DNA from: Escherichia coli
GTDB lineage: Bacteria; Pseudomonadota; Gammaproteobacteria; Enterobacterales; Enterobacteriaceae
Assembly (NCBI RefSeq): GCF_046105845.1
Contig: NZ_CP151004.1
Direction: 5' to 3' (one strand)
Length of the DNA: 64,000 nt
Numbering within the stretch: position 1 is the stretch's first letter; each line of letters opens with the position of its first letter. Both the position numbers and the translations under genes were made by a program. Positions 7,091 through 28,306 of this stretch are shown here, in pieces. The notes under the pieces were generated by a model. The model had not been told where the DNA came from. It saw nothing but the letters and a program-made list of their open reading frames with translations, and did not search any database.

Positions 7091-7537
7091 TCACCCCGCC
7101 AGCCATTGCAGAATCATGTCGCGGGTCATTGCCTCAACATCATCATTTACACCCAGAAGGCGACGCTCTGCGTAACGGACCTCCGGTCCTTTGCGGCTGA
7201 CGCGATCACGTAAGCCGTAGTGATGAACACGGGCAATGCGCTGTACCTTGCCTTCAAACTGCACGCTGGCAGAGTCGGCGCTGGCGGAAGTTTTCAGGTA
7301 TTTTGTGGTGCGCAGCTTTGCAAACATCTGACGTTTGATACGGCCTTTTTTACTGCGTGCTGTTACCCGTCGCGGTTCATAACTGCTGCCATCTGGATTG
7401 CGCTGCATTCTGATATTTTGCTGCTGTGTCCGGCGTAGTTCCTGCGCCAGCTGGCGCATCATGCGGCTTCTTGCGGCTGGCTCCAGATTCGCCAGCAAGG
7501 CACTCAGCCAGTCGTCCACTTTCTGCAGTTCAGCCAC
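7091..7537 (-). CDS. S: Tail completion protein (P2 gpS-like)
   Basis: 148-aa ORF, synteny R-S-V. Confidence 0.8.
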   Translation of the reverse strand: MAELQKVDDWLSALLANLEPAARSRMMRQLAQELRRTQQQNIRMQRNPDGSSYEPRRVTARSKKGRIKRQMFAKLRTTKYLKTSASADSASVQFEGKVQRIARVHHYGLRDRVSRKGPEVRYAERRLLGVNDDVEAMTRDMILQWLAG

Positions 7538-7982
7538 GTTTCACCGTCCACATTTCTTCAGGTTCATCAGGTTCCGCTATAGCTTCAACGCTCGACACAC
7601 TGCCGTCAGTGCTGACCAGCACACGCTCCGTCAGTTGCAGGTTGAGGCTGATATCACAGACATCGTTGCGCAGAATATCCACCTCAAAGGTGAATAGCTT
7701 TTCCCGTAACGCCGGGTTATTGATGGCATCGGGCTGGTTATCACGCAGCCACAGCAAAACCGGGGCCATCAGCAGATTCTGGTCGCCGCTGAAATCCTCA
7801 ATCACCACGTTCAGGGTGTAGCGGTACTCCCATGACATGGAGCTGGCCCCCGTGGCAACCAGCGAACCGTTATCCACAAACAGATGCAGTTTGTCCGGGT
7901 TATTTCGGACATAAGGCACCGCTTTATTGAGGGCGTGGCGCAGGGATTGTGGTTTGTTCACTGTTTCGCTCCTGACACGCAA
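7530..7982 (-). CDS. R: Tail completion protein (P2 gpR-like)
   Basis: 150-aa ORF; ...RYTLNVVIEDFSGDQNLLMAPVLLWLRDNQPD... resembles P2 R. Confidence 0.8.
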   Translation of the reverse strand: MRVRSETVNKPQSLRHALNKAVPYVRNNPDKLHLFVDNGSLVATGASSMSWEYRYTLNVVIEDFSGDQNLLMAPVLLWLRDNQPDAINNPALREKLFTFEVDILRNDVCDISLNLQLTERVLVSTDGSVSSVEAIAEPDEPEEMWTVKRG

Positions 7983-8214
7983 TAATCATGTCCACTTTGT
8001 CTGCACAGACCGCCCAGGCGGCCTCCGTTTCATCCAGCAACTCGTTCAGGTCACCGTTAGTGCGCGGCGCTGCCTGCCCCAGCCGACACGGCGTCACTCG
8101 CGGACAACCACTGACGGTAAGCTGCACCTCCGGTGAGTGCCGGACGTTCCCGCAGCCGGATAATGTCAGCAGGCAAAGGAGTATCAGCCCAGCGGCGTAA
8201 ATCCTCGTTCTCAC
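7924..8214 (-). CDS. Outer-membrane spanin lipoprotein (LysC/Rz1-like), overlapping the 3' end of the i-spanin gene in another frame
   Basis: 96-aa ORF with signal peptide and lipobox-like LTLSGC, Pro-rich; overlaps 8057-8214 of the LysB-like gene. Confidence 0.6.
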   Translation of the reverse strand: MRTRIYAAGLILLCLLTLSGCGNVRHSPEVQLTVSGCPRVTPCRLGQAAPRTNGDLNELLDETEAAWAVCADKVDMIIACQERNSEQTTIPAPRPQ

Positions 8215-8485
8215 GTTTCAGTTCCTCGATCCGGCGTTGTCGTTGTCTCAGCTGTGCGCTGGTCTGTTCTGCTTCGGCATAGAGCCGCGCCTGCTCCCGG
8301 TTATTGGTTTCAGTCAGAATGGACAGGCTGATAAGCTGGCTGTTGCTCTTTGCCAGTGCCTGGCTTTTGCTCTGCAGCTCGTCTGCCTGCGTGCTGATGG
8401 TCTGGCTGGCATCAGCCAGCCGCCACGTCTGCCAGCCCAGCGCCGCCAGTAATAACGCCAGCACAACCAGCAGCAACCGGTTCAT
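8057..8485 (-). CDS. Inner-membrane spanin (LysB/Rz-like)
   Basis: 142-aa ORF with N-terminal transmembrane helix then coiled-coil-like, charged region. Confidence 0.7.
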   Translation of the reverse strand: MNRLLLVVLALLLAALGWQTWRLADASQTISTQADELQSKSQALAKSNSQLISLSILTETNNREQARLYAEAEQTSAQLRQRQRRIEELKRENEDLRRWADTPLPADIIRLRERPALTGGAAYRQWLSASDAVSAGAGSAAH

Positions 8486-8859
8486 GCTGCTACCTGTTGC
8501 GCCATCTGATTACGGGTGATCCAGAAGGCAATAACGGTCAGTAGATAAAAGACCAGGGTAATAGCCCACCCCGTCCAGGCGAGACTTACAACAATCAGCA
8601 ATCGCATCACCCAACTGGTAAATACGTTTTCTTTTCGGGTAATTGTCTTCAGCAAAGATGCCCTTAACTCCTGCCAGAGCGGGCCATTCTTAATTAACGC
8701 AGCCAGTGCTACCGGAATTACCGCCCATGTCAGCAAACAGGCTACCCAAACGCCGGACGCTGCCAGTACCGGAAAAATCCCCTGCGGATACACCATTGCT
8801 GCGATTAACAGCGCCATCCATAACATCAGAAACAGTCCGCTGATTAATTTCTTTTTCAT
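8482..8859 (-). CDS. Lysis-timing membrane protein (P2 LysA-like)
   Basis: Multi-pass hydrophobic protein from MKKKLISGLFLMLWMALLIAAMV...; ORF track start 8931 is probably an upstream extension. Confidence 0.6.
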   Translation of the reverse strand: MKKKLISGLFLMLWMALLIAAMVYPQGIFPVLAASGVWVACLLTWAVIPVALAALIKNGPLWQELRASLLKTITRKENVFTSWVMRLLIVVSLAWTGWAITLVFYLLTVIAFWITRNQMAQQVAA

Positions 8860-8860
8860 T

Positions 8861-9373
8861 TCAGTTTGCTCCCTGTAAGCACCAGGCCATCTCCCGCGCA
8901 CGGCGGTTATCCAGCCCCTGATTAAAAACACCTTTCACATAAACCCAGCGCGGCAACTGTCGGCACGCATCTGCCCAGCGCCGCTGATTGAGTAATTTCA
9001 CCAGCGTGGAACTGCAGGCATTGCCCGTTCCCACGTTGAAGGCAAACGACACCGCAGCGTCATACACCTTCTGCGGCGGCTGTTGCTTCACACACCTTTC
9101 CAGCGCCCGCTCCACACGCAGCACGTTGGAGATCAGCCCTTCTGCTGCCTGTCGCTCCGTAATGGTTTTGCCGGGAATGACGCCTGACGTATTACCAATG
9201 CCGTCGGTCCAGACACCCGCGCTGCACTGATACGGCTGCAGACGACAACCTTCGTAATCAGCAATCAGTTTCAGCCCCTCCACGGAGGTGTGAAGCTGCT
9301 GAAAACCCGGCAGCGTGGCAGCAATAGCCAGCACGGCCCCGACAAGGCAGCGTTTAACGATTGATGGATTCAT
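8861..9373 (-). CDS. Endolysin (lysozyme family) with N-terminal signal-anchor-release-like segment
   Basis: 170-aa ORF; hydrophobic N-terminus CLVGAVLAIAATLPG then LKLIADYEGCRLQPYQCSAGVWTDGIGNT, lysozyme catalytic region. Confidence 0.85.
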   Translation of the reverse strand: MNPSIVKRCLVGAVLAIAATLPGFQQLHTSVEGLKLIADYEGCRLQPYQCSAGVWTDGIGNTSGVIPGKTITERQAAEGLISNVLRVERALERCVKQQPPQKVYDAAVSFAFNVGTGNACSSTLVKLLNQRRWADACRQLPRWVYVKGVFNQGLDNRRAREMAWCLQGAN

Positions 9374-9569
9374 AGTCCTCCCGCGTGATCTGCCCGTCGC
9401 GCAGAAGCTGGTAGGCTTTGTGTTTGTAGTACCAGTTGATAGCCAGCATCAGCACACCAATCATCAGGCCGCCCAGCGTTGAGGCATCCTTGATGGACAA
9501 ATCGCCCAGCCAGGCCAGCACAACGGCGATGCAGTACGTGATAAAGGCGCTGATTCGCTCAAGCGTCAT
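9354..9569 (-). CDS. Holin
   Basis: 71-aa protein with two hydrophobic helices and a charged C-terminus, directly upstream of the endolysin. Confidence 0.7.
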   Translation of the reverse strand: MTLERISAFITYCIAVVLAWLGDLSIKDASTLGGLMIGVLMLAINWYYKHKAYQLLRDGQITREDYESINR

Positions 9570-9572
9570 AAT

Positions 9573-9776
9573 TCAGTCCCATAGCTGGACGGTCTGCACG
9601 GTGGTGGTAGTCGGAATGTCCGGCAGCTCCACCTGCAGCCCGTGAGGTAAAAAGGGGCCGTATTCGGCAAGCCCCGGATTTGCCTTCAGTACCTGCTCCG
9701 TGACACCCTGCGTGCGCCCGTAATGACGCCAGCAAAGCGCGTCCACCGTGTCATACTGATGCGCACGCACTTTCAT
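9573..9776 (-). CDS. X: Tail protein (P2 gpX-like)
   Basis: 67-aa ORF MKVRAHQYDTVDALCWRHYGRTQGVTEQVLKANPGL..., LysM-like, conserved between L and lysis genes. Confidence 0.8.
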   Translation of the reverse strand: MKVRAHQYDTVDALCWRHYGRTQGVTEQVLKANPGLAEYGPFLPHGLQVELPDIPTTTTVQTVQLWD

Positions 9777-10303
9777 CAGATAAGCTCCACTGTGCAGTGC
9801 GGCGCGTCCTGTACCCGGCTGATGGCCCAGCGGGCGTCACGCCATAAATTACCGCTGGCTTCTGCCAGTTCTTCGCCCCGCTTCACACCGGATGCCGTGG
9901 CGTCATAGTCCTGGTAACGTTCGTTGAGCATGGCGCGTGCCCAGCAGTAAACCGCGTTGAAATAGTGCTGAATGCGCTCGCTTTTGCCGTCCAGATGTTC
10001 TGCCGGAACCTCTGCCAGCGAGGCATACCCCAGCATCTGCTGGCGTCTGCGAAACTCATACAGCTCTGCGTTGACCTCCGAAATTGCCGACAGCGCAACC
10101 TGCTTTAAACGCGGCTGCGTCACCGTGCCATCAGTGCGCATCACGCTGCGAAACTCCGACAGGTCCACATCAGGCCAGAACGGCGTATTTCTGATGATTT
10201 CCGCCTGTTCCGGTGCCTGTTCTGGCGCAACAAACTTCATGCTGCTTTCTCCTGAAATAAAGGGCGGTGGACGGGGTTTTGATGTGGCAGTGCCTTTCGC
10301 CAC
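9776..10303 (-). CDS. L: Head completion / stabilisation protein (P2 gpL-like)
   Basis: ORF in conserved M-L-X order; true start may be the internal Met at 10240. Confidence 0.75.
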   Translation of the reverse strand: MAKGTATSKPRPPPFISGESSMKFVAPEQAPEQAEIIRNTPFWPDVDLSEFRSVMRTDGTVTQPRLKQVALSAISEVNAELYEFRRRQQMLGYASLAEVPAEHLDGKSERIQHYFNAVYCWARAMLNERYQDYDATASGVKRGEELAEASGNLWRDARWAISRVQDAPHCTVELI

Positions 10304-10335
10304 CCCGTGCCGCCCGTGCGCGGGGGCACGTTCTG

Positions 10336-10986
10336 TCAGCGGCTGTCATTGCGCAGTCTGCGCTCCAGCTGCTGTTTGTCTTTTTTCACGCCACAGCGGG
10401 GATCGAGCTGTAACGCATGGTTGAGATGATTAAGGGCGGAAGCCGGATTGCTTTCACTCAGAACAGCGCCAATCGCTTTATGCAGACGCGCCCGTGACTG
10501 GTCCGGCATATCCAGACCGTCTGTCAGCTCCAGCGTCTGCAGCAACAGATCGGCATCAAAGCCGGTGGCGGCAAGCATTGCGCTCTGCGCTGCATCTGCC
10601 ATTTCCTCTGCCAGCACGGTCTGCACATTGCGGTTACCCAGCGGCATCACCCAGCCATGACGCAGGGCATGACGCCCGATCTCCAGCGCCCCGGCATAAT
10701 CTCCGGCATCAATACGCCACAGCATCACGTACATCAGCACGTCATCCTGTTGAGCGCCTCCGGCAGCCAGAACACCCTCCGCCCAGGCGGCGTACTTCGG
10801 CAGCAGCTCCACTTTGATTTCCGCTTTTTTGACCGTGGACTGAACGCCCTTGAGACGGCGTCGGTCTTCCGCCAGTTGCAGCAGCATCAGGTCATAGCCC
10901 GACGCGTGGCGAACGCTGCCGCCCTCGCGGGCGGCCTGTTCAGCCTGAACGCGCAGGCGATGCTGCCGTGCGGGACTCAGGCTCAT
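10336..10986 (-). CDS. M: Terminase small (endonuclease) subunit (P2 gpM-like)
   Basis: 216-aa ORF with ...DDVLMYVMLWRIDAGDYAGALEIGRHAL... motif. Confidence 0.85.
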   Translation of the reverse strand: MSLSPARQHRLRVQAEQAAREGGSVRHASGYDLMLLQLAEDRRRLKGVQSTVKKAEIKVELLPKYAAWAEGVLAAGGAQQDDVLMYVMLWRIDAGDYAGALEIGRHALRHGWVMPLGNRNVQTVLAEEMADAAQSAMLAATGFDADLLLQTLELTDGLDMPDQSRARLHKAIGAVLSESNPASALNHLNHALQLDPRCGVKKDKQQLERRLRNDSR

Positions 10987-15862: not shown

Positions 15863-17287
15863 TTACTTACGTGTTTCAACTATATTCAGCCCCTTATAAA
15901 GGCTTTGATGGATATATACAGAACCAGTATTTGGCAACATTAAATCAGCATCTTCACATCGGAATCTAGCCGTACCGGAATTGCCCAACCGGACACCAAT
16001 CACAGAAGCATTAAATAGAGTTTTCATCAATTCACGAGAAGTATAGCGCTTACAAAGGTCAGGCGCTTTCTCTTCAATCTTACTGATGAATTCTTCTGTA
16101 GAATTATATCTATGCTGCGTCTGACGTAAAGATTCCAATAGCTCACCAAAATGAGGGTAGAGCCTTTTGTATTCTTGTTTTAAGTCCTCAACTTTCCAAG
16201 CGCTGTACCGTTCTTCAGCTATTCTAATTATATCCTTTTTTATTTCAGAAGCATTAGCATCACAGCGTTTTTGGCATTCTTGCAAAAACTGAATAACTTC
16301 TCTTGGGCGCAAAAATGTGCGCTTCACCAAATAGTTAAACGGTGAAATACTCCCTCTCATTTCACCTTCCTCAAAAATATCATCTATAGTTATATTTTCC
16401 GGCAATCTGGCGTTCACCATATCTTTCAACAACTCTGGTGTCCAGATTATTTCTTCTTCAATTGCTCGGTGTTTATCTTTATCATCAAATTCCAGCCCTT
16501 GATAAATATCAGAGCGTAAAAATGTTACAATATGAATACCTTTGGCTCTAGTATCAGAATAACTATCATTAATATCTTTTGTTGCCTTCAACAAGCCAAT
16601 CAAAAGGCTTTTGGCATCATCCGATCCATCCCAAGAATCATCTAATCGATCAGTGGCAATTAGCACCCCAATATCTGTACAAATTTCTTTAAGCTCGTCA
16701 AGGATGATTTTTATTATTTGAGGTGTCAATGGTGCTTGCGAAGCATCCTTATTAAACCCCACAGCATATCCGAAAGCCTCAAAATTGAATGAACTTAATC
16801 CCGAGAGTAACTTCCTTGCAGTTCCCAAAGTAGTTGGCGATATACCACCATAGTTATCAGAAACAAATTTTTTAATTCTAGCAAGGGCCTCCCGAGGTCT
16901 TTTCTCTGAAAATTGCCTACCTGACCTAATAATTTCTGCCGCAGCCTCAACAGCTATTGCAAATTTCCAAGCATTACAATGTGCCTGTTCGGGTAACAAC
17001 CCTTGCTCTTGATATTGTTTTAATGCTCCCCAAGCATACTGGTCTGGGGTCATGACATTTACGATAACGTCCTGCCCATATTTTGCTCTTACCAACCTTG
17101 GGAGTTGGGTAAAGATGGATGATTTCCCAGCCCCCTTTCTTCCAAGAAAATGGGCACTATAGAAACTCAGAGCTTGCTCAACTTGAGGAGTATTGATGAA
17201 ATAATCAGCCAACCTTCTATCAGCTTCAGCATCGACAGTACCAAAGTTGAGTCCCTTAACTGTAAGGCCTAACGCATCTAACCGCAC
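15863..17287 (-). CDS. P-loop NTPase, divergent KAP-like (candidate anti-phage or accessory gene)
   Basis: 474-aa ORF with GTG start and AAGGA RBS; Walker A FLGRKGAGKSSIF; Walker B-like VLIATDRLDDSW; visibly AT-rich compared with flanking late genes; lies between the cos-like site and Q. Confidence 0.75.
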   Translation of the reverse strand: MRLDALGLTVKGLNFGTVDAEADRRLADYFINTPQVEQALSFYSAHFLGRKGAGKSSIFTQLPRLVRAKYGQDVIVNVMTPDQYAWGALKQYQEQGLLPEQAHCNAWKFAIAVEAAAEIIRSGRQFSEKRPREALARIKKFVSDNYGGISPTTLGTARKLLSGLSSFNFEAFGYAVGFNKDASQAPLTPQIIKIILDELKEICTDIGVLIATDRLDDSWDGSDDAKSLLIGLLKATKDINDSYSDTRAKGIHIVTFLRSDIYQGLEFDDKDKHRAIEEEIIWTPELLKDMVNARLPENITIDDIFEEGEMRGSISPFNYLVKRTFLRPREVIQFLQECQKRCDANASEIKKDIIRIAEERYSAWKVEDLKQEYKRLYPHFGELLESLRQTQHRYNSTEEFISKIEEKAPDLCKRYTSRELMKTLFNASVIGVRLGNSGTARFRCEDADLMLPNTGSVYIHQSLYKGLNIVETRK

Positions 17288-18300: not shown

Positions 18301-18534
18301 TTAATGCAGCCAGCTGTCGTCCTCCCACACCTTCTGCATAATTTTCATCACTTGTTTTCTTTCTTCATCCAGTTGCAGTCCGGTTAGTTCCACACCGTTA
18401 GAGCTACCTTTGCGAATGCGAATTACCGTTTTGGGATACAGGGGGCGCAGATTGCGGTAAAGCTCGGATTCAAGGGCGTCCAGGGTAGACTGGCTAATCT
18501 TCTGCTCTTTATCGATCATTATTTCAATGCGCAT
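18301..18534 (-). CDS. DinI-family protein (186 Tum-like SOS antirepressor, C-terminal module)
   Basis: MRIEIMIDKEQKISQSTLDALESELYRNLRPLYP...KIMQKVWEDDSWLH aligns with the DinI fold; ORF track extends it to 18606 in the same frame. Confidence 0.7.
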   Translation of the reverse strand: MRIEIMIDKEQKISQSTLDALESELYRNLRPLYPKTVIRIRKGSSNGVELTGLQLDEERKQVMKIMQKVWEDDSWLH

Positions 18535-18544
18535 AAAAGTCACC

Positions 18545-18733
18545 TCAGCTGATGACATCCATTGAGCGGTTGTATTCGTGGCTTCTGATTTTTGCCATGA
18601 GTTCATCAGTCAATTCAGAAACCCACTGCAGAGCCAGCCCCTTCTCTTCATCACTACACTCACTAGCCGCTACAAGCTTAAGAAAAAAATCAATGCGCTG
18701 GAGCTTCAAAGACTCCAAAAAATAGTCCTGCAT
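18545..18733 (-). CDS. Small hypothetical protein, first gene of the LexA-boxed operon
   Basis: 62-aa ORF directly downstream of the LexA box, upstream of the DinI-like ORF, in a different frame. Confidence 0.5.
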   Translation of the reverse strand: MQDYFLESLKLQRIDFFLKLVAASECSDEEKGLALQWVSELTDELMAKIRSHEYNRSMDVIS

Positions 18734-18764
18734 CTTTCCTCCTATAACACCAAAACAATACTGT

Positions 18765-18780
18765 ACACATAACCACTGTT
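18765..18780. promoter_or_regulatory. LexA (SOS) box
   Basis: CTGTTTATATTTACAG, a perfect CTGT-N8-ACAG box about 30 bp upstream of the 18733 start. Confidence 0.6.
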
Positions 18781-18885
18781 TATATTTACAGTATATAATA
18801 ATCTTACTGATGTAAAACGTTTTTTTACGTTCATCGGCCTGATATGCCTGGTATTATTAAGAGCACGAATTGTTAACCCGCGTAA

Positions 18886-23020: not shown

Positions 23021-23214
23021 TGGTTCCCCCGTTTTTTCGTTGATAGTTCTGCCAGCAATTCATCTTGTGAACGGCACGGATGCCAGCGTTTACCATCCTC
23101 ACCCATGATCCAGCCGTGACCGTAGTGCATTGCCGGACTTTGTTTTACCAGCAGCGATGCAAATGATGGTTCTTTCGTCAGCATAAGCACCTCACAGCAA
23201 ACCGAATGAAGCAC
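22984..23214 (-). CDS. Hypothetical phage protein
   Basis: 76-aa ORF overlapping neighbours by a few codons; start uncertain. Confidence 0.4.
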   Translation of the reverse strand: MLHSVCCEVLMLTKEPSFASLLVKQSPAMHYGHGWIMGEDGKRWHPCRSQDELLAELSTKKRGNQWLLKALRRLFH

Positions 23215-23701
23215 CGAGGCCAGTCACGGTATCAACTGCACTCGCCATCGCAGGATTAGCCTGTAAACGGGCCTGCAATGAAACAGCAGCCAGCGCCATC
23301 AGTCGTGTAACAGAGTTAATGCTGCTGATCGCATCACGACGGCCTGCACTGGTTTTTACATCGCCAGAAACCGCACCTGCCGCGACACGCCCTATCTCTG
23401 CAGTTGCACTCATGACGTAATGCGGCAGTTTCTCTTTTGCCACCTCATTAATCGGTACACATGGCAGGCAGTGAATCTGTGCCAGAAAGCCATCTACCAG
23501 CGTTGAATCTTCAGTCAGATCGGTAAGCAGCCAGATTTCTGGCGCATTGAGCTGATGCGGTTGATCTGGGTTGAGTTTGTTTCGCAGAGTCTGGACATTC
23601 ATTCCTGCACGTTCTGCCAGCTTCGCCATATTGTGACGAAGTGCAAAAGCTCTACAGGCTTCATCAAAATGCGGGTGTTTGGAAACTTGGTAATCAAACA
23701 T
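23192..23701 (-). CDS. cII: Lysogeny establishment regulator CII (186 type)
   Basis: [50 protein letters not shown]... resembles 186 CII. Confidence 0.85.
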
Positions 23702-23733
23702 GGTCAATGCCTCTGATGTATTTCAGAATCGAA

Positions 23734-23955
23734 CTAATTAAGGTTTAGATTGCATTCTGAAAGCGCATCAACGGTCATGGCTGCTATGTTGATCATCACT
23801 TTTTCGCGTTTTTTATCTTTCCGCAGACGGTGACGGATAAGACGTCCATCAGCCAACATGTCATTGATAGTATCGATGGATAGCCCTGTCAGCTCGCTAT
23901 AACGTTCAATAGTCACATGAGGCGTGGTAAGAGTGATTGAAATGTTAGGTTTCAT
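23734..23955 (-). CDS. apl: Apl/Cox-like excisionase-repressor
   Basis: 73-aa HTH protein, first gene of the lytic operon, divergent from cI. Confidence 0.65.
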
Positions 23956-24080
23956 GATGCAACATTCCTCGTTTAATGTTGATTAATCAGGACGAATACG
24001 GATCGTTTGTATTTTGTGAACATCATAAACATACGATCGCATAATGAAATCGTCAAGACAAAAGTTCACTTGGAGTGACC
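23956..24080. promoter_or_regulatory. Lysis-lysogeny switch region (face-to-face pR/pL type, inferred)
   Basis: ~120-bp AT-rich interval between divergent apl and cI with short repeats (ATACGGATCG / ATACGATCGC). Confidence 0.45.
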
Positions 24081-24650
24081 ATGAATTTGGAGAAAGGCGG
24101 ACGAGGCGCTATAGAGCGCATGGTAGAAGCATATGGCTTCAAGACTCGACAGGCGTTGTGCGATCACTTAGGAATCTCTAAAAGTACTCTCGCCACACGC
24201 TATATGCGTGACTCATTCCCTGCTGAATGGGTAATCCAGTGCGCACTTGAAACGGGCGCCTCGCTTAACTGGCTCACGACCGGACATGGTTCAAAGCAAA
24301 CTTCAGGTAATACAAATACTATGGAAGTCGTTAAATATGTATTATCTGATGGAACCTTGCAGGAAGATGGTTTTTATATTTTCGATAAAGAATTTCTACC
24401 ATCTACGCTCAAAAATCCGTTTGTAATCACCGATAACAATTCCGTTTTTATTTGCGATAAAGAGTTTAACGATATTCGTGACGGCAAATGGGTAATAAGT
24501 ATTGATGCCGAAGTAACAATCCGCGATATCACTCGTTTACCTGGTGGAAGAATCTTAGTTGAAGGTGGAAATAGGGCTTTCGAATGTAAAAAAGAAGAAA
24601 TCGAAATTATTGGAAAAATTATAAGCATAACAGTTAAGTACTTTGAGTAA
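24081..24650 (+). CDS. cI: Immunity repressor CI (186 type)
   Basis: ATG at 24081 after a GGAG RBS; ...IERMVEAYGFKTRQALCDHLGISKSTLATRYMRD..CALETGASLNWLTTG...ITRLPGG...FECK... Confidence 0.85.
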   Translation: MNLEKGGRGAIERMVEAYGFKTRQALCDHLGISKSTLATRYMRDSFPAEWVIQCALETGASLNWLTTGHGSKQTSGNTNTMEVVKYVLSDGTLQEDGFYIFDKEFLPSTLKNPFVITDNNSVFICDKEFNDIRDGKWVISIDAEVTIRDITRLPGGRILVEGGNRAFECKKEEIEIIGKIISITVKYFE

Positions 24651-24700
24651 TATAGGAATGTTTTTATGCTTGGTAAAGCATTTGTTGTGGTGTAAAAAAT

Positions 24701-25624
24701 ATGTCAACTCAAAAATTAAAATTTAGCCATATCAAAAACGATCTGAAAGCAATAGTTATGCAGAATCGTGGAGGGCAAAAAGTTATTGAGCGTATACTCC
24801 TAGCCTATGGCTTCAAGTCACGACAGGCATTATGTAATCATCTAGGTATTTCCCAAAGTACTATGGCCAACAGATATGCACGTAATACCTTTCCTGCAGA
24901 TTGGGTTGTTATATGTTCCATAGAAACAGGAGCATCAATTGAATGGTTAGTTCTTGGTTCAGATACTGCTCCTTCATCAGAGCAATATTCTGAAAAACAT
25001 GCCGTTAATGGCCTTTGCAATGAAGTATACATTCCCACTATAAAGTTCGATAATGAAAAACTCATGAATTTTAACCGAGGGGGTAAGGCAACAATAGAAC
25101 GAATTGTCGAGGCTTACGGTTACAAAACGCGCCAAGCATTAGCTGATCACCTAGGTATTTCAAAAAGCACATTAGCCACACGATACATGCGTGACATTTT
25201 TCCTGCAGACTGGGTTTTGCAGTGTGCAATAGAAACGGGCCATTCTATTGAATGGATTTCATTTGGTACAGGAGAAATGAAAAACACAAAAAATAAAGAT
25301 ACTTTAACATTAGTGAAAAAAGTATTAATCAATGGCAAGTTAATAAATGATGGCTCATATTTATTTGACCCATGCTTTCTACCTTCCAATTTAAAAAATG
25401 CATTCGTAGTATCTACCGAAGACTCTGAATTAATATGTGAAATGGGTTTTAAAGATGTACATGATGGTAAGTGGCTAGTAAATATTGATGGAGAGAATTC
25501 ATTTAGAATGATAACTCGACTACCTAAAGGACGAGTTTATATTTCATCCCAAAATCACTCTTTTGAATGTTCGCTTACAGACATTGAGTTTATTGCAAAA
25601 GTTATTATAAGTTGTTTACATTAA
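24701..25624 (+). CDS. CI paralogue with tandem duplicated N-terminal HTH domains plus a CI-like C-terminal domain
   Basis: 307 aa; residues ~22-90 and ~125-190 each resemble the CI N-domain (the second carries ISKSTLATRYMRD, identical to CI); C-terminal FECSLTDIEF region parallels the CI C-domain. Confidence 0.8.
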   Translation: MSTQKLKFSHIKNDLKAIVMQNRGGQKVIERILLAYGFKSRQALCNHLGISQSTMANRYARNTFPADWVVICSIETGASIEWLVLGSDTAPSSEQYSEKHAVNGLCNEVYIPTIKFDNEKLMNFNRGGKATIERIVEAYGYKTRQALADHLGISKSTLATRYMRDIFPADWVLQCAIETGHSIEWISFGTGEMKNTKNKDTLTLVKKVLINGKLINDGSYLFDPCFLPSNLKNAFVVSTEDSELICEMGFKDVHDGKWLVNIDGENSFRMITRLPKGRVYISSQNHSFECSLTDIEFIAKVIISCLH

Positions 25625-25649
25625 GTAAATTTTTCATGGAGACTTCATA

Positions 25650-27167
25650 GTGAAATGTGGTGATTGTAATTGGAACTGGGATGAAGAAACTACCTTTATA
25701 TTAGACGACGAAGAGGAAATTCTTTCCAAAGACAAACTTAATCGGAGACACTATGCAGAATATCTATATTTTTATCTTAAGGAAAAGGGGCAAAAGAACA
25801 ACACGGTAATCAACCTTAATGCAGAATGGGGAGCTGGTAAAAGTTTTTTCATAAAGAGATTTTATAACTCAATAAAAGATGCACACCCATGCGTTTACAT
25901 TGATGCCTGGAAGCAAGACTTTTCTGATGATGCATTTTTAACCCTTTTTTCTTCTTTGTCACAACAATTGCAAACATATGCAGGAAAACTTGATGCTCGA
26001 TTGATACAAAGCGGCCATGCTATCGGACGCTTTACAAAAGGTGTTCTACCTGAAATCATATCTGGCCTAATCAAGACTTATGCAGGAGTAGATAACGTAG
26101 GTGATATAGCCAAAGAAGCCTCATTAATAATGCTGAAGGAACACCAGGAAAAACTGAAGAGCATTAAGGTATTAAAAAAAGAACTAACGTTATGGTCTAG
26201 GTTGGCATATGAAAATAGTTTTTCATGTCCTATATTTATCTTTATAGATGAATTAGACAGATGCAGGCCAGATTATGCAATTTCTCTTTTAGAGATTGTT
26301 AAACATATATTCGATATTAAAAATTTTGTCTTTATTATTGCTACTGACACAGATCAATTACAACATTCAATCAAGAATGTTTACGGTAATGATTTTTCCG
26401 CAAATGACTATTTAGGCCGTTTTTTTCATAGAAGATTTACTTTAAAACAACCTGAACTTAAAGATTTAATTAATGGTGTTATTGGTGATTATATTGGTAC
26501 CGATTTTGAAAATATCACATCAAAAACATACCCACTAACAGCAACATTAGAAGACTTTTCAATAAATATTTCCAACGTATTTGAAGCATTTGGGTTAAAT
26601 CTAAGAGACTCAATCCGAAATACTGAAAGGTTAATAGACATTCTTAAATCTGATTTAGTCAAAAAGAAAGTAGATTATATTTTTATAATTTCGCTAATGA
26701 TTATATATGATAAGGATCGTCAAATTATAGATGGACTAATTGGTCGAAGAAATGCAGCACAACGTTTCACTGATTCGATAAAGCAAAGCTCCAATTTAAA
26801 AGGTGTTTCTCAAGCCATCCTTGAATTAAATCTTGATACAAATCAGCAAAGAATAGGTGTCAATTATATCTATAGAACGGCGAGCAGTAGATTATTCATC
26901 TCACAGATCGAGCCCAAAATAAATTTAACATTAATAAATTACTTAGATGTTGCATTGTATTTTATTAATAATATAAACATGCTTAAATCAAGTATAAAAA
27001 ACAATGGGCAAAATTCACTAATGATTATATCTCAACAAGGCCCTATTGATGGTGATACAGCTATAAAGTATTTGCAAGGAGCCCTTATAGAGAATGGTCT
27101 GAATACATCTTTTTATGCCTTACATAATTACATTGAATTAATTGAACTGGCCACATCATTTGATTAA
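25650..27167 (+). CDS. KAP-family P-loop NTPase
   Basis: 505 aa, GTG start with GGAGA RBS; NLNAEWGAGKSFF (Walker A), IDAWKQDFSDDAFLTLF, IFIFIDELDRCRPDYAISLLEIVKHIF (Walker B), all hallmark KAP motifs; AT-rich. Confidence 0.85.
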   Translation: MKCGDCNWNWDEETTFILDDEEEILSKDKLNRRHYAEYLYFYLKEKGQKNNTVINLNAEWGAGKSFFIKRFYNSIKDAHPCVYIDAWKQDFSDDAFLTLFSSLSQQLQTYAGKLDARLIQSGHAIGRFTKGVLPEIISGLIKTYAGVDNVGDIAKEASLIMLKEHQEKLKSIKVLKKELTLWSRLAYENSFSCPIFIFIDELDRCRPDYAISLLEIVKHIFDIKNFVFIIATDTDQLQHSIKNVYGNDFSANDYLGRFFHRRFTLKQPELKDLINGVIGDYIGTDFENITSKTYPLTATLEDFSINISNVFEAFGLNLRDSIRNTERLIDILKSDLVKKKVDYIFIISLMIIYDKDRQIIDGLIGRRNAAQRFTDSIKQSSNLKGVSQAILELNLDTNQQRIGVNYIYRTASSRLFISQIEPKINLTLINYLDVALYFINNINMLKSSIKNNGQNSLMIISQQGPIDGDTAIKYLQGALIENGLNTSFYALHNYIELIELATSFD

Positions 27168-27229
27168 AAGCATTGTTTGAATAAACTAAACCATACATTG
27201 ACCACTGGTCAAACATACAGTTAAATTTA

Positions 27230-27253
27230 GCCCTCTGATATGAGGGCTTTATT
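27230..27253 (+). terminator. Weak hairpin upstream of int
   Basis: GCCCTC-tgatat-GAGGGC followed by TTTATT. Confidence 0.35.
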
Positions 27254-28306
27254 ATGGCAGTACGAAAACTCACCACAGGAAAATGGCTTTGCGAATGTTA
27301 CCCCGCCGGACGTAGTGGGCGTCGTGTGCGTAAACAATTCGCCACCAAAGGCGAAGCACTGGCTTTTGAGCGTCACACGATGGAAGAAACCGAAGCAAAG
27401 CCCTGGCTGGGTGAATCAGTGGATCGTCGAACACTGAAAGACGTGGTTGAGCTATGGTTCAAACTACATGGTAAATCTCTGACTGCTGGGCAGCATGTCT
27501 ATGACAAATTGCTGCTGATGGTTGACGCTCTGGGCAATCCCCTTGCAACTGATCTAACCTCTAAAATGTTTGCCCACTATCGAGATAAACGCCTGACAGG
27601 TGAGATCTACTTCAGTGAGAAATGGAAGAAAGGAGCAAGCCCGGTCACCATTAACCTGGAGCAAAGCTATCTAAGTAGTGTTTTTAGCGAACTATCCCGC
27701 CTGGGCGAATGGTCGTATCCGAACCCACTGGAGAACATGCGAAAATTCACCATCGCAGAAAAAGAGATGGCATGGCTTACCCATGAGCAGATTGTTGAAT
27801 TACTAGCTGATTGCAAACGTCAGGACCCAATTCTGGCACTGGTAGTTAAGATATGCTTAAGCACAGGCGCACGCTGGCGAGAAGCCGTAAATCTTACCCG
27901 CTCACAGGTGACCAAATACCGAATTACCTTTGTAAGAACGAAGGGGAAGAAAAACAGAAGCATCCCTATCAGTAAAGAGCTTTACGAAGAGATCATGGCG
28001 CTTGATGGGTTCAATTTCTTCACAGACTGCTATTTTCAATTTTTATCCGTGATGGAAAAAACGTCTATCGTGCTCCCTCGCGGTCAACTCACACACGTTC
28101 TGCGCCATACGTTTGCGGCGCACTTCATGATGTCGGGTGGAAACATTCTGGCTTTACAAAAAATTCTCGGACACCACGATATAAAAATGACTATGCGTTA
28201 CGCACATCTGGCACCGGATCATCTGGAAACGGCGCTCCGTTTCAATCCTCTGGCAACGCTGCCAAGTGGCGACAAAGTGGCGGCAGCGGTTGGCATTACC
28301 CCGTAA
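27254..28306 (+). CDS. int: Tyrosine integrase (P2/186 Int family)
   Basis: 350 aa; C-terminal catalytic region ...HVLRHTFAAHFMMSGGNILALQKILGHHDIKMTMRYAHL. Confidence 0.9.
   Translation: MAVRKLTTGKWLCECYPAGRSGRRVRKQFATKGEALAFERHTMEETEAKPWLGESVDRRTLKDVVELWFKLHGKSLTAGQHVYDKLLLMVDALGNPLATDLTSKMFAHYRDKRLTGEIYFSEKWKKGASPVTINLEQSYLSSVFSELSRLGEWSYPNPLENMRKFTIAEKEMAWLTHEQIVELLADCKRQDPILALVVKICLSTGARWREAVNLTRSQVTKYRITFVRTKGKKNRSIPISKELYEEIMALDGFNFFTDCYFQFLSVMEKTSIVLPRGQLTHVLRHTFAAHFMMSGGNILALQKILGHHDIKMTMRYAHLAPDHLETALRFNPLATLPSGDKVAAAVGITP

Follow-up and report, generated by a model that had tools for sequence, protein, structure and literature searches.

Among the closest described systems to the one analysed here is the CI repressor of coliphage 186, which forms a 14-mer wheel (PDB 2FJR, 2FKD) and whose pR operators show a two-turn spacing (PMC3675496). 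Among other phage repressors, P2 C is an immunity repressor that reads direct repeats (PMC2995052), and the monomeric repressor of mycobacteriophage TipsytheTRex reads asymmetric sites with two DNA-binding domains in one chain (PMC9283540). In P2-related Vibrio phages, the interval between the repressor gene cI and the integrase gene int is a known defence hotspot (PMC9122126). We analysed a 64,000-nt window of Escherichia coli DNA (assembly GCF_046105845.1, contig NZ_CP151004.1), in which positions 24081–25624, read together with their surroundings (23192–28306), encode two 186-type CI proteins in succession: a resident single-domain CI and a protein of 307 residues with two helix-turn-helix (HTH) domains, here called T307. 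The surroundings form the immunity and integration end of a 186/P2-like prophage, with the gene order cII, apl/cox-like, cI, T307, KAP NTPase and int.

T307 has the same two domain families as 186 CI (PF07022 and PF16452), to which it adds an N-terminal HTH of a distinct clade, a conserved N-terminal tail and a disordered linker of ~30 residues; it also differs from 186 CI in being encoded second in its operon, without a switch of its own. P2 C and the TipsytheTRex repressor come from unrelated families, and in neither is a 186-type oligomerisation domain preceded by a duplicated HTH. We are highly confident that T307 belongs to a tandem-HTH CI subfamily, is intact and was acquired horizontally. 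The fuller reading, that it is a captured tandem-HTH repressor which is co-transcribed with its neighbours and adds a second immunity, we regard as evenly balanced between true and false.

Architecture of T307 and its subfamily

Residues 3–183 of resident CI align without gaps to residues 122–302 of T307 (BLASTP, 56% identity, E 6e-78), and residues 7–77 align a second time, to residues 23–93 (58% identity, E 3e-30). Pfam places two PF07022 domains (28–89 and 130–194) and one PF16452 domain (207–302) in T307, in the order N1 HTH, disordered linker, N2 HTH and CI C-terminal domain (CTD). Both structures of 186 CI match the protein, 2FJR over residues 131–302 (186 CI residues 10–182, E 8.6e-23). 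A preliminary description of this DNA had stated that the CI DNA-binding domain recurs twice inside the downstream protein, which the BLASTP alignments and the two PF07022 matches bear out. It was also right that the second internal copy keeps the recognition segment of CI in diverged DNA, since GISKSTLATRYMRD is the same in resident CI and N2 with nine synonymous differences in 42 nt, and that the first copy differs there, the N1 counterpart being ISQSTMANRYARN.

The codon-level comparison that the same description proposed was made on 62-aa domain cores (24096–24281, 24770–24955 and 25079–25264). Pairwise identity among the three HTH cores was 63–74% in protein and 63–66% in DNA, synonymous sites were saturated (pS 0.78–0.90) and dN was 0.19–0.29; the picture of a covalently tandem DNA-binding module under purifying selection stands. 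Compared with the subfamily consensus, T307 deviates at one of 48 conserved N1 columns (D62N) and at five of 43 conserved N2 columns, all five conservative and resembling the prophage locus L034 described below, and on this comparison its domains appear free of decay. The motif SKST[LM]A[TN]RY[ML]RD occurs nearly throughout the enterobacterial 186-type CIs, a family with no fewer than four distinct switch regions. Because the helix is generic to the family, its sharing by resident CI and N2 is no proof of a locus-specific relationship.

An AlphaFold2 (AF2) model of T307, built with 36 homologues, contains two confident five-helix bundles, with predicted local distance difference test (pLDDT) values of 82–93 in 10-residue blocks over most of both domains, and a beta-rich CTD (block pLDDT 83–95). 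Residues 91–121 are disordered (pLDDT <50), and the mutual arrangement of N1 and N2 is undefined (predicted template modelling score, pTM, 0.42). With this pTM and the disorder of the linker, a fixed N1–N2 pseudo-dimer is neither supported nor excluded by the model, in which a flexible tether connects the two domains. The linker also differs in length and sequence across the tandem-CI family.

T307 fits the 186-type CI class by its N-terminal CI-type HTH and beta-rich CTD. It fits the tandem-HTH CI subfamily, which we defined from an alignment (A1) of fetched homologues, by an N1 of the SQSTMANRYAR clade, a disordered linker and an N2 of the general clade of CI N-terminal domains (NTDs). Approximately 50 of the 120 best 90%-identity clusters listed were of tandem length (257–330 aa), as were about a dozen 50%-identity clusters; those of tandem length came from E. 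coli, Salmonella, Klebsiella, Enterobacter, Citrobacter, Kosakonia and Edwardsiella. A domain tree and clade census drawn from 268 fetched proteins placed N1 in a deep clade whose members always stood first in a tandem CI (in 32 full-length proteins and three fragments) and never in a single-domain CI, and N2 domains intermixed with the NTDs of single-domain CIs.

The preliminary description overlooked that many related phages have a protein of this architecture as their sole immunity repressor. We kept 80 related loci, numbered L001 onward, nearly half of which are IMG/VR loci with a tandem CI. In Klebsiella phage 4LV2017 the only repressor is a tandem CI of 313 aa, encoded 88 nt from the divergent apl. 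A tandem CI is likewise the sole repressor beside apl in every other IMG/VR tandem-CI locus (about 40 tandem-CI loci were fetched) and in ~20 GenBank records of Klebsiella phages. The distance from tandem cI to the divergent apl is 82–125 nt, and 88 nt in most N1-type loci. Among the loci retrieved, a single-domain cI followed by a tandem cI occurred only in the window's own lineage. A tandem-type N1 region was found in 238 of 5426 complete E. coli genomes (~4%), 16 of which belong to that lineage, and many Klebsiella prophages also have a tandem-HTH CI. The integrase of most tandem-CI prophages is 99–100% identical to the window's int, so these phages presumably compete for the same attachment site. 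Databases label the tandem-CI proteins simply 'phage repressor protein CI', and a literature search found no paper on a tandem or two-HTH 186-type CI and nothing specific on 4LV2017; tandem-HTH CI is a widespread and apparently undescribed subfamily of 186-type CI.

Other tandem CIs have different first domains (L035, L037, L062–L065; proteins P0053 and P0055), one of them with the helix SASTMGTRWMRD, and N1 of P0053 and P0055 is nearly identical to the NTD of the window's resident CI. Given these varied first domains, head domains have apparently been shuffled repeatedly.

Origin of T307 and its carriers

T307-N1 is 90% identical to N1 of 4LV2017, T307-N2 is 85–89% identical to N2 of L006, N2 of L001 and the NTD of L034, and the NTD of resident CI is 97% identical to the single-domain CIs of L042 and L073, which share its switch sequence. 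The CI of 4LV2017 (ARB15674.1; Peduoviridae, Elveevirus) and those of related Klebsiella prophages have the same tandem architecture as T307 and 62% overall identity to it. N2 of 4LV2017 is 85% identical with an identical helix, and the N1 helix SQSTMANRYAR is also identical, followed by N in T307 and by D in 4LV2017. The 4LV2017 protein differs in its setting, with a pR that overlaps its start codon, and in its CTD, which is only 40% identical. More broadly, the T307 CTD is 62–67% identical to those of L034 and L036, 46% to that of resident CI and 30–43% to those of other N1-type tandem CIs.

Junctions in the DNA follow the same divisions. On the left, the match to prophages whose cI is the same or similar (the L044 group, BL21-type) stops at 24691, 41 nt past the cI stop codon. 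From 24693, 8 nt ahead of the T307 ATG, the sequence is homologous to tandem cI genes, with 79% DNA identity (4LV2017) up to 25268, the end of N2. L034, a prophage with a single-domain cI and a KAP gene, is 73% identical in DNA over 25060–26850, continuously from N2 through the CTD into KAP, and the conserved homology upstream of int resumes at ~27185–27195 in nearly all related loci. By these mapped junctions, T307 and KAP fill a variable cI–int cargo slot exactly. T307 in turn is a mosaic of a 4LV2017-like double head and an L034-like CTD. As the captured segment starts 8 nt before the ATG, the gene's own promoters and operators were left behind; T307 is a second gene that lacks a promoter/operator region, which its homologues do have beside apl.

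The preliminary description had explained the repeated domain as an ancient local duplication of the resident cI, retained for the same operator specificity. Its age holds, as judged from the saturated synonymous sites, and the adjacency and shared orientation of cI and T307, together with 56% protein identity, would suit such an origin. The origin within the locus does not hold: each domain is closer to relatives elsewhere (85–97%) than to its counterparts at the locus (63–74%), the junction at 24691/24693 is sharp, and sampled prophages with the same cI have a slot of ~290 nt and no second cI. These prophages have ~91% DNA identity over 23700–24691 and account for roughly one half of the 60 rows sampled from 1084 matching E. 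coli genomes, with BL21 among them. The three copies were not mutually closest in the domain comparison, nor did the sampled genomes show the arrangement in close prophages. Domain tree, mosaic mapping and common short-slot prophages thus rule out a local duplication, to which we assign a negligible probability.

Compared with the IMG/VR loci, the resident CI is also mosaic: the NTD and switch resemble those of L042 and L073 at 95–97% (CTDs 48–57%), and the CTD is 84% like that of the L044 group, whose switch differs.

Of 5426 complete E. coli genomes, 16 carry the whole 3.6-kb segment of the locus at 99.4% identity or more, among them the enteropathogenic E. coli (EPEC) strain E2348/69, and RefSeq annotates 'phage repressor protein CI' twice at the locus. 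The integrity of the open reading frame (ORF), on which the preliminary description depended, was confirmed: T307 is intact in all six independent copies checked, and an annotated coding sequence in all 16 complete E. coli carriers. The six copies compared have no stops or frameshifts and few polymorphisms, which lie outside the HTH domains; with 1–6 nucleotide differences per copy, they are too few to inform on selection within the lineage. Because all carriers are near-clonal, selection since capture is not measurable.

These observations bear on a second alternative, in which T307 is a by-product of the illegitimate recombination that imported KAP and has no selected role in this prophage. 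A mere hitch-hiker would not be expected to show a breakpoint that keeps the full ORF yet removes the donor's leftward pR, no excess of changes at conserved positions, and not one stop or frameshift in six copies. It would fit with the near-clonality of the carriers and with the old, DNA-continuous linkage between CTD and KAP (73% over 25060–26850 against L034), so that cI sequence travels with KAP. In L034 the same slot bears scars of this kind, namely a truncated int and a CI-like fragment with a frameshift, and the block conserved at codons 6–10 of tandem cI genes is already lost in T307. Overall we consider this explanation unlikely.

Switch regions, candidate operators and possible function

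The native switch of tandem-CI phages was characterized from 21 unique aligned switch sequences. In N1-type loci the switch spans 82–106 nt (mostly 88 nt) and the pR −35 overlaps the cI ATG: ATGTCAA comprises the start codon region and the reverse complement of a TTGACA −35, and the minus-strand promoter scores 10 of 12 matches. An invariant block, AC.TCACA...CGG.GA.TAGG.TC.CA, holds two candidate sites, S1 and S2, flanking the reverse complement of a TATTCT −10; S2 reads GGTTCACA in 4LV2017-like phages. A third candidate site, S3 (CACATTTCGCCAT), lies within codons 6–10 of tandem cI. The three would form direct TCACA-type repeats bracketing pR, at ~+1, in the spacer and ~9 nt upstream of the −35. 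In this they differ from the 186 system, both as direct repeats and in having one site within coding sequence, while the S1–S2 spacing of 20–21 bp matches that of the 186 pR operators (PMC3675496). Across 20 unique tandem genes, 44 invariant positions have degenerate codons and only four of these use a single codon; three of the four are codons 7, 9 and 10, which therefore points to constraint on the DNA, that is, to a cis-acting site. T307 is the sole copy in which the S3 block is destroyed (AAATTAAAATTTAGCCAT, giving T7K and R9S). It lacks both the frozen block CACATTTCGCCAT and a switch directly upstream, features that mark the other N1-type members of the subfamily, and the loss of S3 fits a gene separated from its own switch.

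The resident pR is predicted on the minus strand, with a −35 at 24051–24056 and a −10 at 24028–24033. The motif GTTCACA (24015–24021, minus strand) lies at the predicted pR start, and GTTCAC (24064–24069, plus strand) lies 8 nt upstream of the −35. Both occupy pR-relative positions of S1 and S3 but are inverted, whereas the tandem-type sites are direct repeats; we treat all of these, in resident and tandem-type switches alike, as candidate operators. The same switch sequence also lies beside the single-domain CIs of L042, L067, L070, L073 and L080 (NTDs 95–97% identical). The earlier suggestion of a shared operator specificity is thus plausible, from the identical helix and from GTTCAC(A) at equivalent pR positions in both switch types, but the helix is family-generic.

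T307 could also act as an auxiliary modulator of the resident switch, close to what the preliminary description had in mind when it proposed an auxiliary repressor or an operator decoy: it would bind the resident GTTCAC(A) through N2, form mixed oligomers with CI or soak up antirepressor, and so tighten or retune lysogeny. N2 and resident CI have identical helices, GTTCACA and GTTCAC stand where S1 and S3 would be, and an SOS-type box precedes a tum/DinI-like gene pair in the prophage. Against this role, the helix is common to CIs whose switch sequences are of at least four kinds, the sites at the resident pR are inverted relative to the direct repeats of the tandem type, and the CTDs of the two proteins are only 46% identical. 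The composite tandem-type site TCACAWWWCG had no occurrence in a motif scan of positions 1–29000 of the window, and a tandem-type composite operator in that region was rejected. We hold a modulator role to be rather improbable, below even the hitch-hiker explanation.

Two further features of the switch region were recorded. The sole non-coding differences between E2348/69 (L002) and the window lie in the pR–pL switch (24010, 24023 and 24033), and one of them alters the first base of the predicted pR −10 (TATGTT to CATGTT). All five occurrences of GATCG[CT][AT]T in positions 1–29000 fall within 23327–24736, three in the switch and one on each side of it, in cII (~690 bp leftward) and within T307 (~715 bp rightward); the cluster may be related to operators, to Dam or to flanking sites, or may be due to chance.

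We return to T307 as a captured repressor that adds immunity. The gene was captured together with the KAP NTPase gene into the slot between resident cI and int, where it starts 50 nt downstream of cI. It would be transcribed from the lysogenic promoter pL together with cI, KAP and int, as there is no terminator after cI: neither a terminator nor a promoter was predicted between cI and T307, and the interval has no significant fold (z = 0.13 relative to shuffled sequence), so both were rejected as candidates there. The protein would most likely bind the pR operators of incoming tandem-CI phages, because both of its recognition helices correspond to those in genuine tandem repressors, for example in 4LV2017, the N2 helix being identical. 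The lysogen would thereby gain a second immunity specificity, stacked beside an NTPase of abortive-infection type. Prospective targets are present, namely the 238 of 5426 E. coli genomes with tandem-CI regions, where int is mostly 99–100% identical. For the hetero-immunity function itself our support is tentative, somewhat short of even.

Several observations weigh against this reading. The T307 CTD is 30–43% identical to the CTDs of its presumed targets, so its cooperative binding on their operator geometry is conjectural. A protein search for a donor phage yielded none whose primary repressor was T307-like (>62% identical). The gene has a weak Shine-Dalgarno sequence, we infer both its expression and its operator binding from sequence, and the operators themselves were assigned solely from their conservation and position. 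With the 16 carriers at least 99.4% identical, an intact gene tells little about selection after capture. The match between N2 helix and S2 also traces to a single clade. In it GGTTC accompanies ..LAT.. and GGATC accompanies ..LAN/VAN.., and this association, though perfect, was rejected as statistical support and carries no weight because of that single-clade origin.

In its most general form, the proposal is that repressors can be captured as anti-phage cargo: the double-headed repressor of a rival group, stripped of its promoters and operators, would sit in the cI–int hotspot and render the lysogen immune to two groups with the same integrase. With it goes the view of tandem-HTH CI as a distinct design, in which one chain would read direct repeats with two non-equivalent heads, one of the sites lying in its own coding sequence. 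This combined proposal is possible but, in our estimate, slightly more doubtful than the hetero-immunity function taken by itself.

The KAP gene, the cargo slot and neighbouring features

The KAP gene lies 25 nt downstream of T307 (Table 1), and its 505-aa product matches the PADLOC model PDC-S20 (E 9e-78), with weaker matches to PifA and QatA. T307 itself has no significant match in PADLOC (best E 0.029, Upx) and none in NCBIfam, and was rejected as a known defence component. In 186-like prophages, relatives of KAP (47–71% identity) invariably occupy the final gene position ahead of int. The single-domain cI–KAP modules of L034, L036 and L094–L096 have the same gene order and spacing as T307–KAP, and in these five loci a KAP protein 62–71% identical directly follows a cI whose CTD is 59–68% identical to that of T307; L034 alone adds the continuous DNA identity of 73%. 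They differ from T307 in having one HTH, and the upstream cI is in each case the phage's own single-domain primary repressor. More distant KAPs (47–52%) follow cIs with unrelated CTDs, or lie 1–1.7 kb from cI.

This pattern speaks to a further alternative, that T307 and KAP form a two-gene defence system in which T307 senses incoming 186-type DNA, a role that the preliminary description had also raised, or controls expression of KAP. The 25-nt gap and the co-divergence of CTD type and KAP across the five loci are in keeping with such a pair. Against it, the cI in those loci serves as a primary repressor, the distant KAPs do without a related CTD or a nearby cI, PADLOC models PDC-S20 as a single gene with T307 no part of it, T307 matches no PADLOC model significantly, and a sequence and motif scan found no operator-like motif between T307 and KAP. 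A dependence of KAP on tandem CI was rejected, as KAP relatives follow single-domain or unrelated cIs. We see little prospect for a sensor or regulator role, and less than for the modulator of the resident switch.

Table 1. Features at the immunity and integration end of the prophage (positions in the window)
Feature	Position	Strand	Evidence or remark
cII	23192–23707	-	ORF list and phrog matches
apl/cox-like excisionase-repressor, first gene of lytic operon	23734–23955	-	phrog_575, E 7e-30
Resident ('W-type') pR–pL switch	23956–24080		Promoter and motif scans
Resident 186-type CI	24081–24650	+	189 aa (ATG) or 191 aa (GTG at 24075); phrog_4, E 1e-44; adjoins switch
Resident CI NTD core	24096–24281	+	
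cI 3' flank and left edge of cargo slot	24651–24692		Junction 24691/24693
T307, tandem-HTH 186-type CI, 307 aa	24701–25624	+	Intact ORF
Degenerate remnant AAATTAAAATTTAGCCAT of frozen DNA block	24713–24730	+	Other N1-type tandem cI genes read ..CACATTTCGCCAT
HTH domain N1 (aa 28–89), recognition helix SQSTMANRYAR	24782–24967	+	PF07022, E 1e-25; pLDDT 82–91
Inter-domain tether (aa 90–129): disordered variable linker (aa 91–121) and start of N2	24968–25087	+	pLDDT <50 for 91–121
HTH domain N2 (aa 130–194), recognition helix SKSTLATRYMRD	25088–25282	+	PF07022, E 2.7e-27
CI C-terminal oligomerisation domain of T307 (aa 207–302)	25319–25606	+	PF16452, E 2.4e-25
KAP-family P-loop NTPase, 505 aa, candidate anti-phage gene, last cargo gene before int	25650–27167	+	PADLOC PDC-S20; phrog_8614
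Conserved int-upstream region, right edge of cargo slot	27185–27253		Hairpin at 27229–27248
P2/186-type integrase (int)	27254–28306	+	

The remaining features of the prophage were read alongside. The apl/cox-like protein is 85–100% identical across all related loci. Directly 5' of the int start codon, in a region common to nearly all related prophages, the conserved GC-rich hairpin at 27229–27248 is followed by a T-run and may attenuate or regulate int expression from pL. In L034 (IMG/VR 3300027766_000138, positions 7117–10570), cI and KAP are followed by an int truncated to 85 codons, a frameshifted CI-like fragment, cargo ORFs and a full int, an arrangement that looks like nested recombination scars in the same slot.

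Outside the immunity region, a 474-aa P-loop ATPase of the Sll1717 family (15863–17287, minus strand; NCBIfam NF047389, E 2.5e-84) has a weak match to an anti-phage model. Its gene occupies a second variable cargo spot, flanked by the portal gene and the DinI/tum-like region, and E2348/69 has DprA at this spot. At 18301–18800 (minus strand), a 62-aa ORF (18545–18733) overlaps a DinI-like ORF (18301–18606) that matches phrog_189 at positions 64–148 only. A LexA-box-like sequence, CTGTTTATATTTACAG, is found at 18776, ~40 nt upstream of the 62-aa ORF, and this stretch may be a split or two-gene SOS-controlled tum-like module.

As in the defence hotspots of P2-like phages (Rousset et al. 2022), the cI–int interval is variable in the related loci (~0.3 to >3 kb) and often holds KAP-like NTPases. 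Unlike those hotspots, the cargo here includes a complete heterologous immunity repressor, and a literature search found no report of a captured second repressor in the cI–int slot and nothing specific on hetero-immunity conferred by a second repressor. If the reading of T307 as a captured, immunity-adding repressor is correct, the 186 switch family would include a new repressor design, with two different HTH heads per chain ahead of the wheel-forming domain, tied to direct-repeat sites that bracket pR and of which one lies inside the repressor's own codons. A foreign immunity repressor carried as hotspot cargo would then constitute a simple and testable case of 'immunity stacking' between prophages with the same integrase. 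Even if T307 is inert, the locus documents the reshuffling of immunity cassettes and cargo at the cI–int junction.

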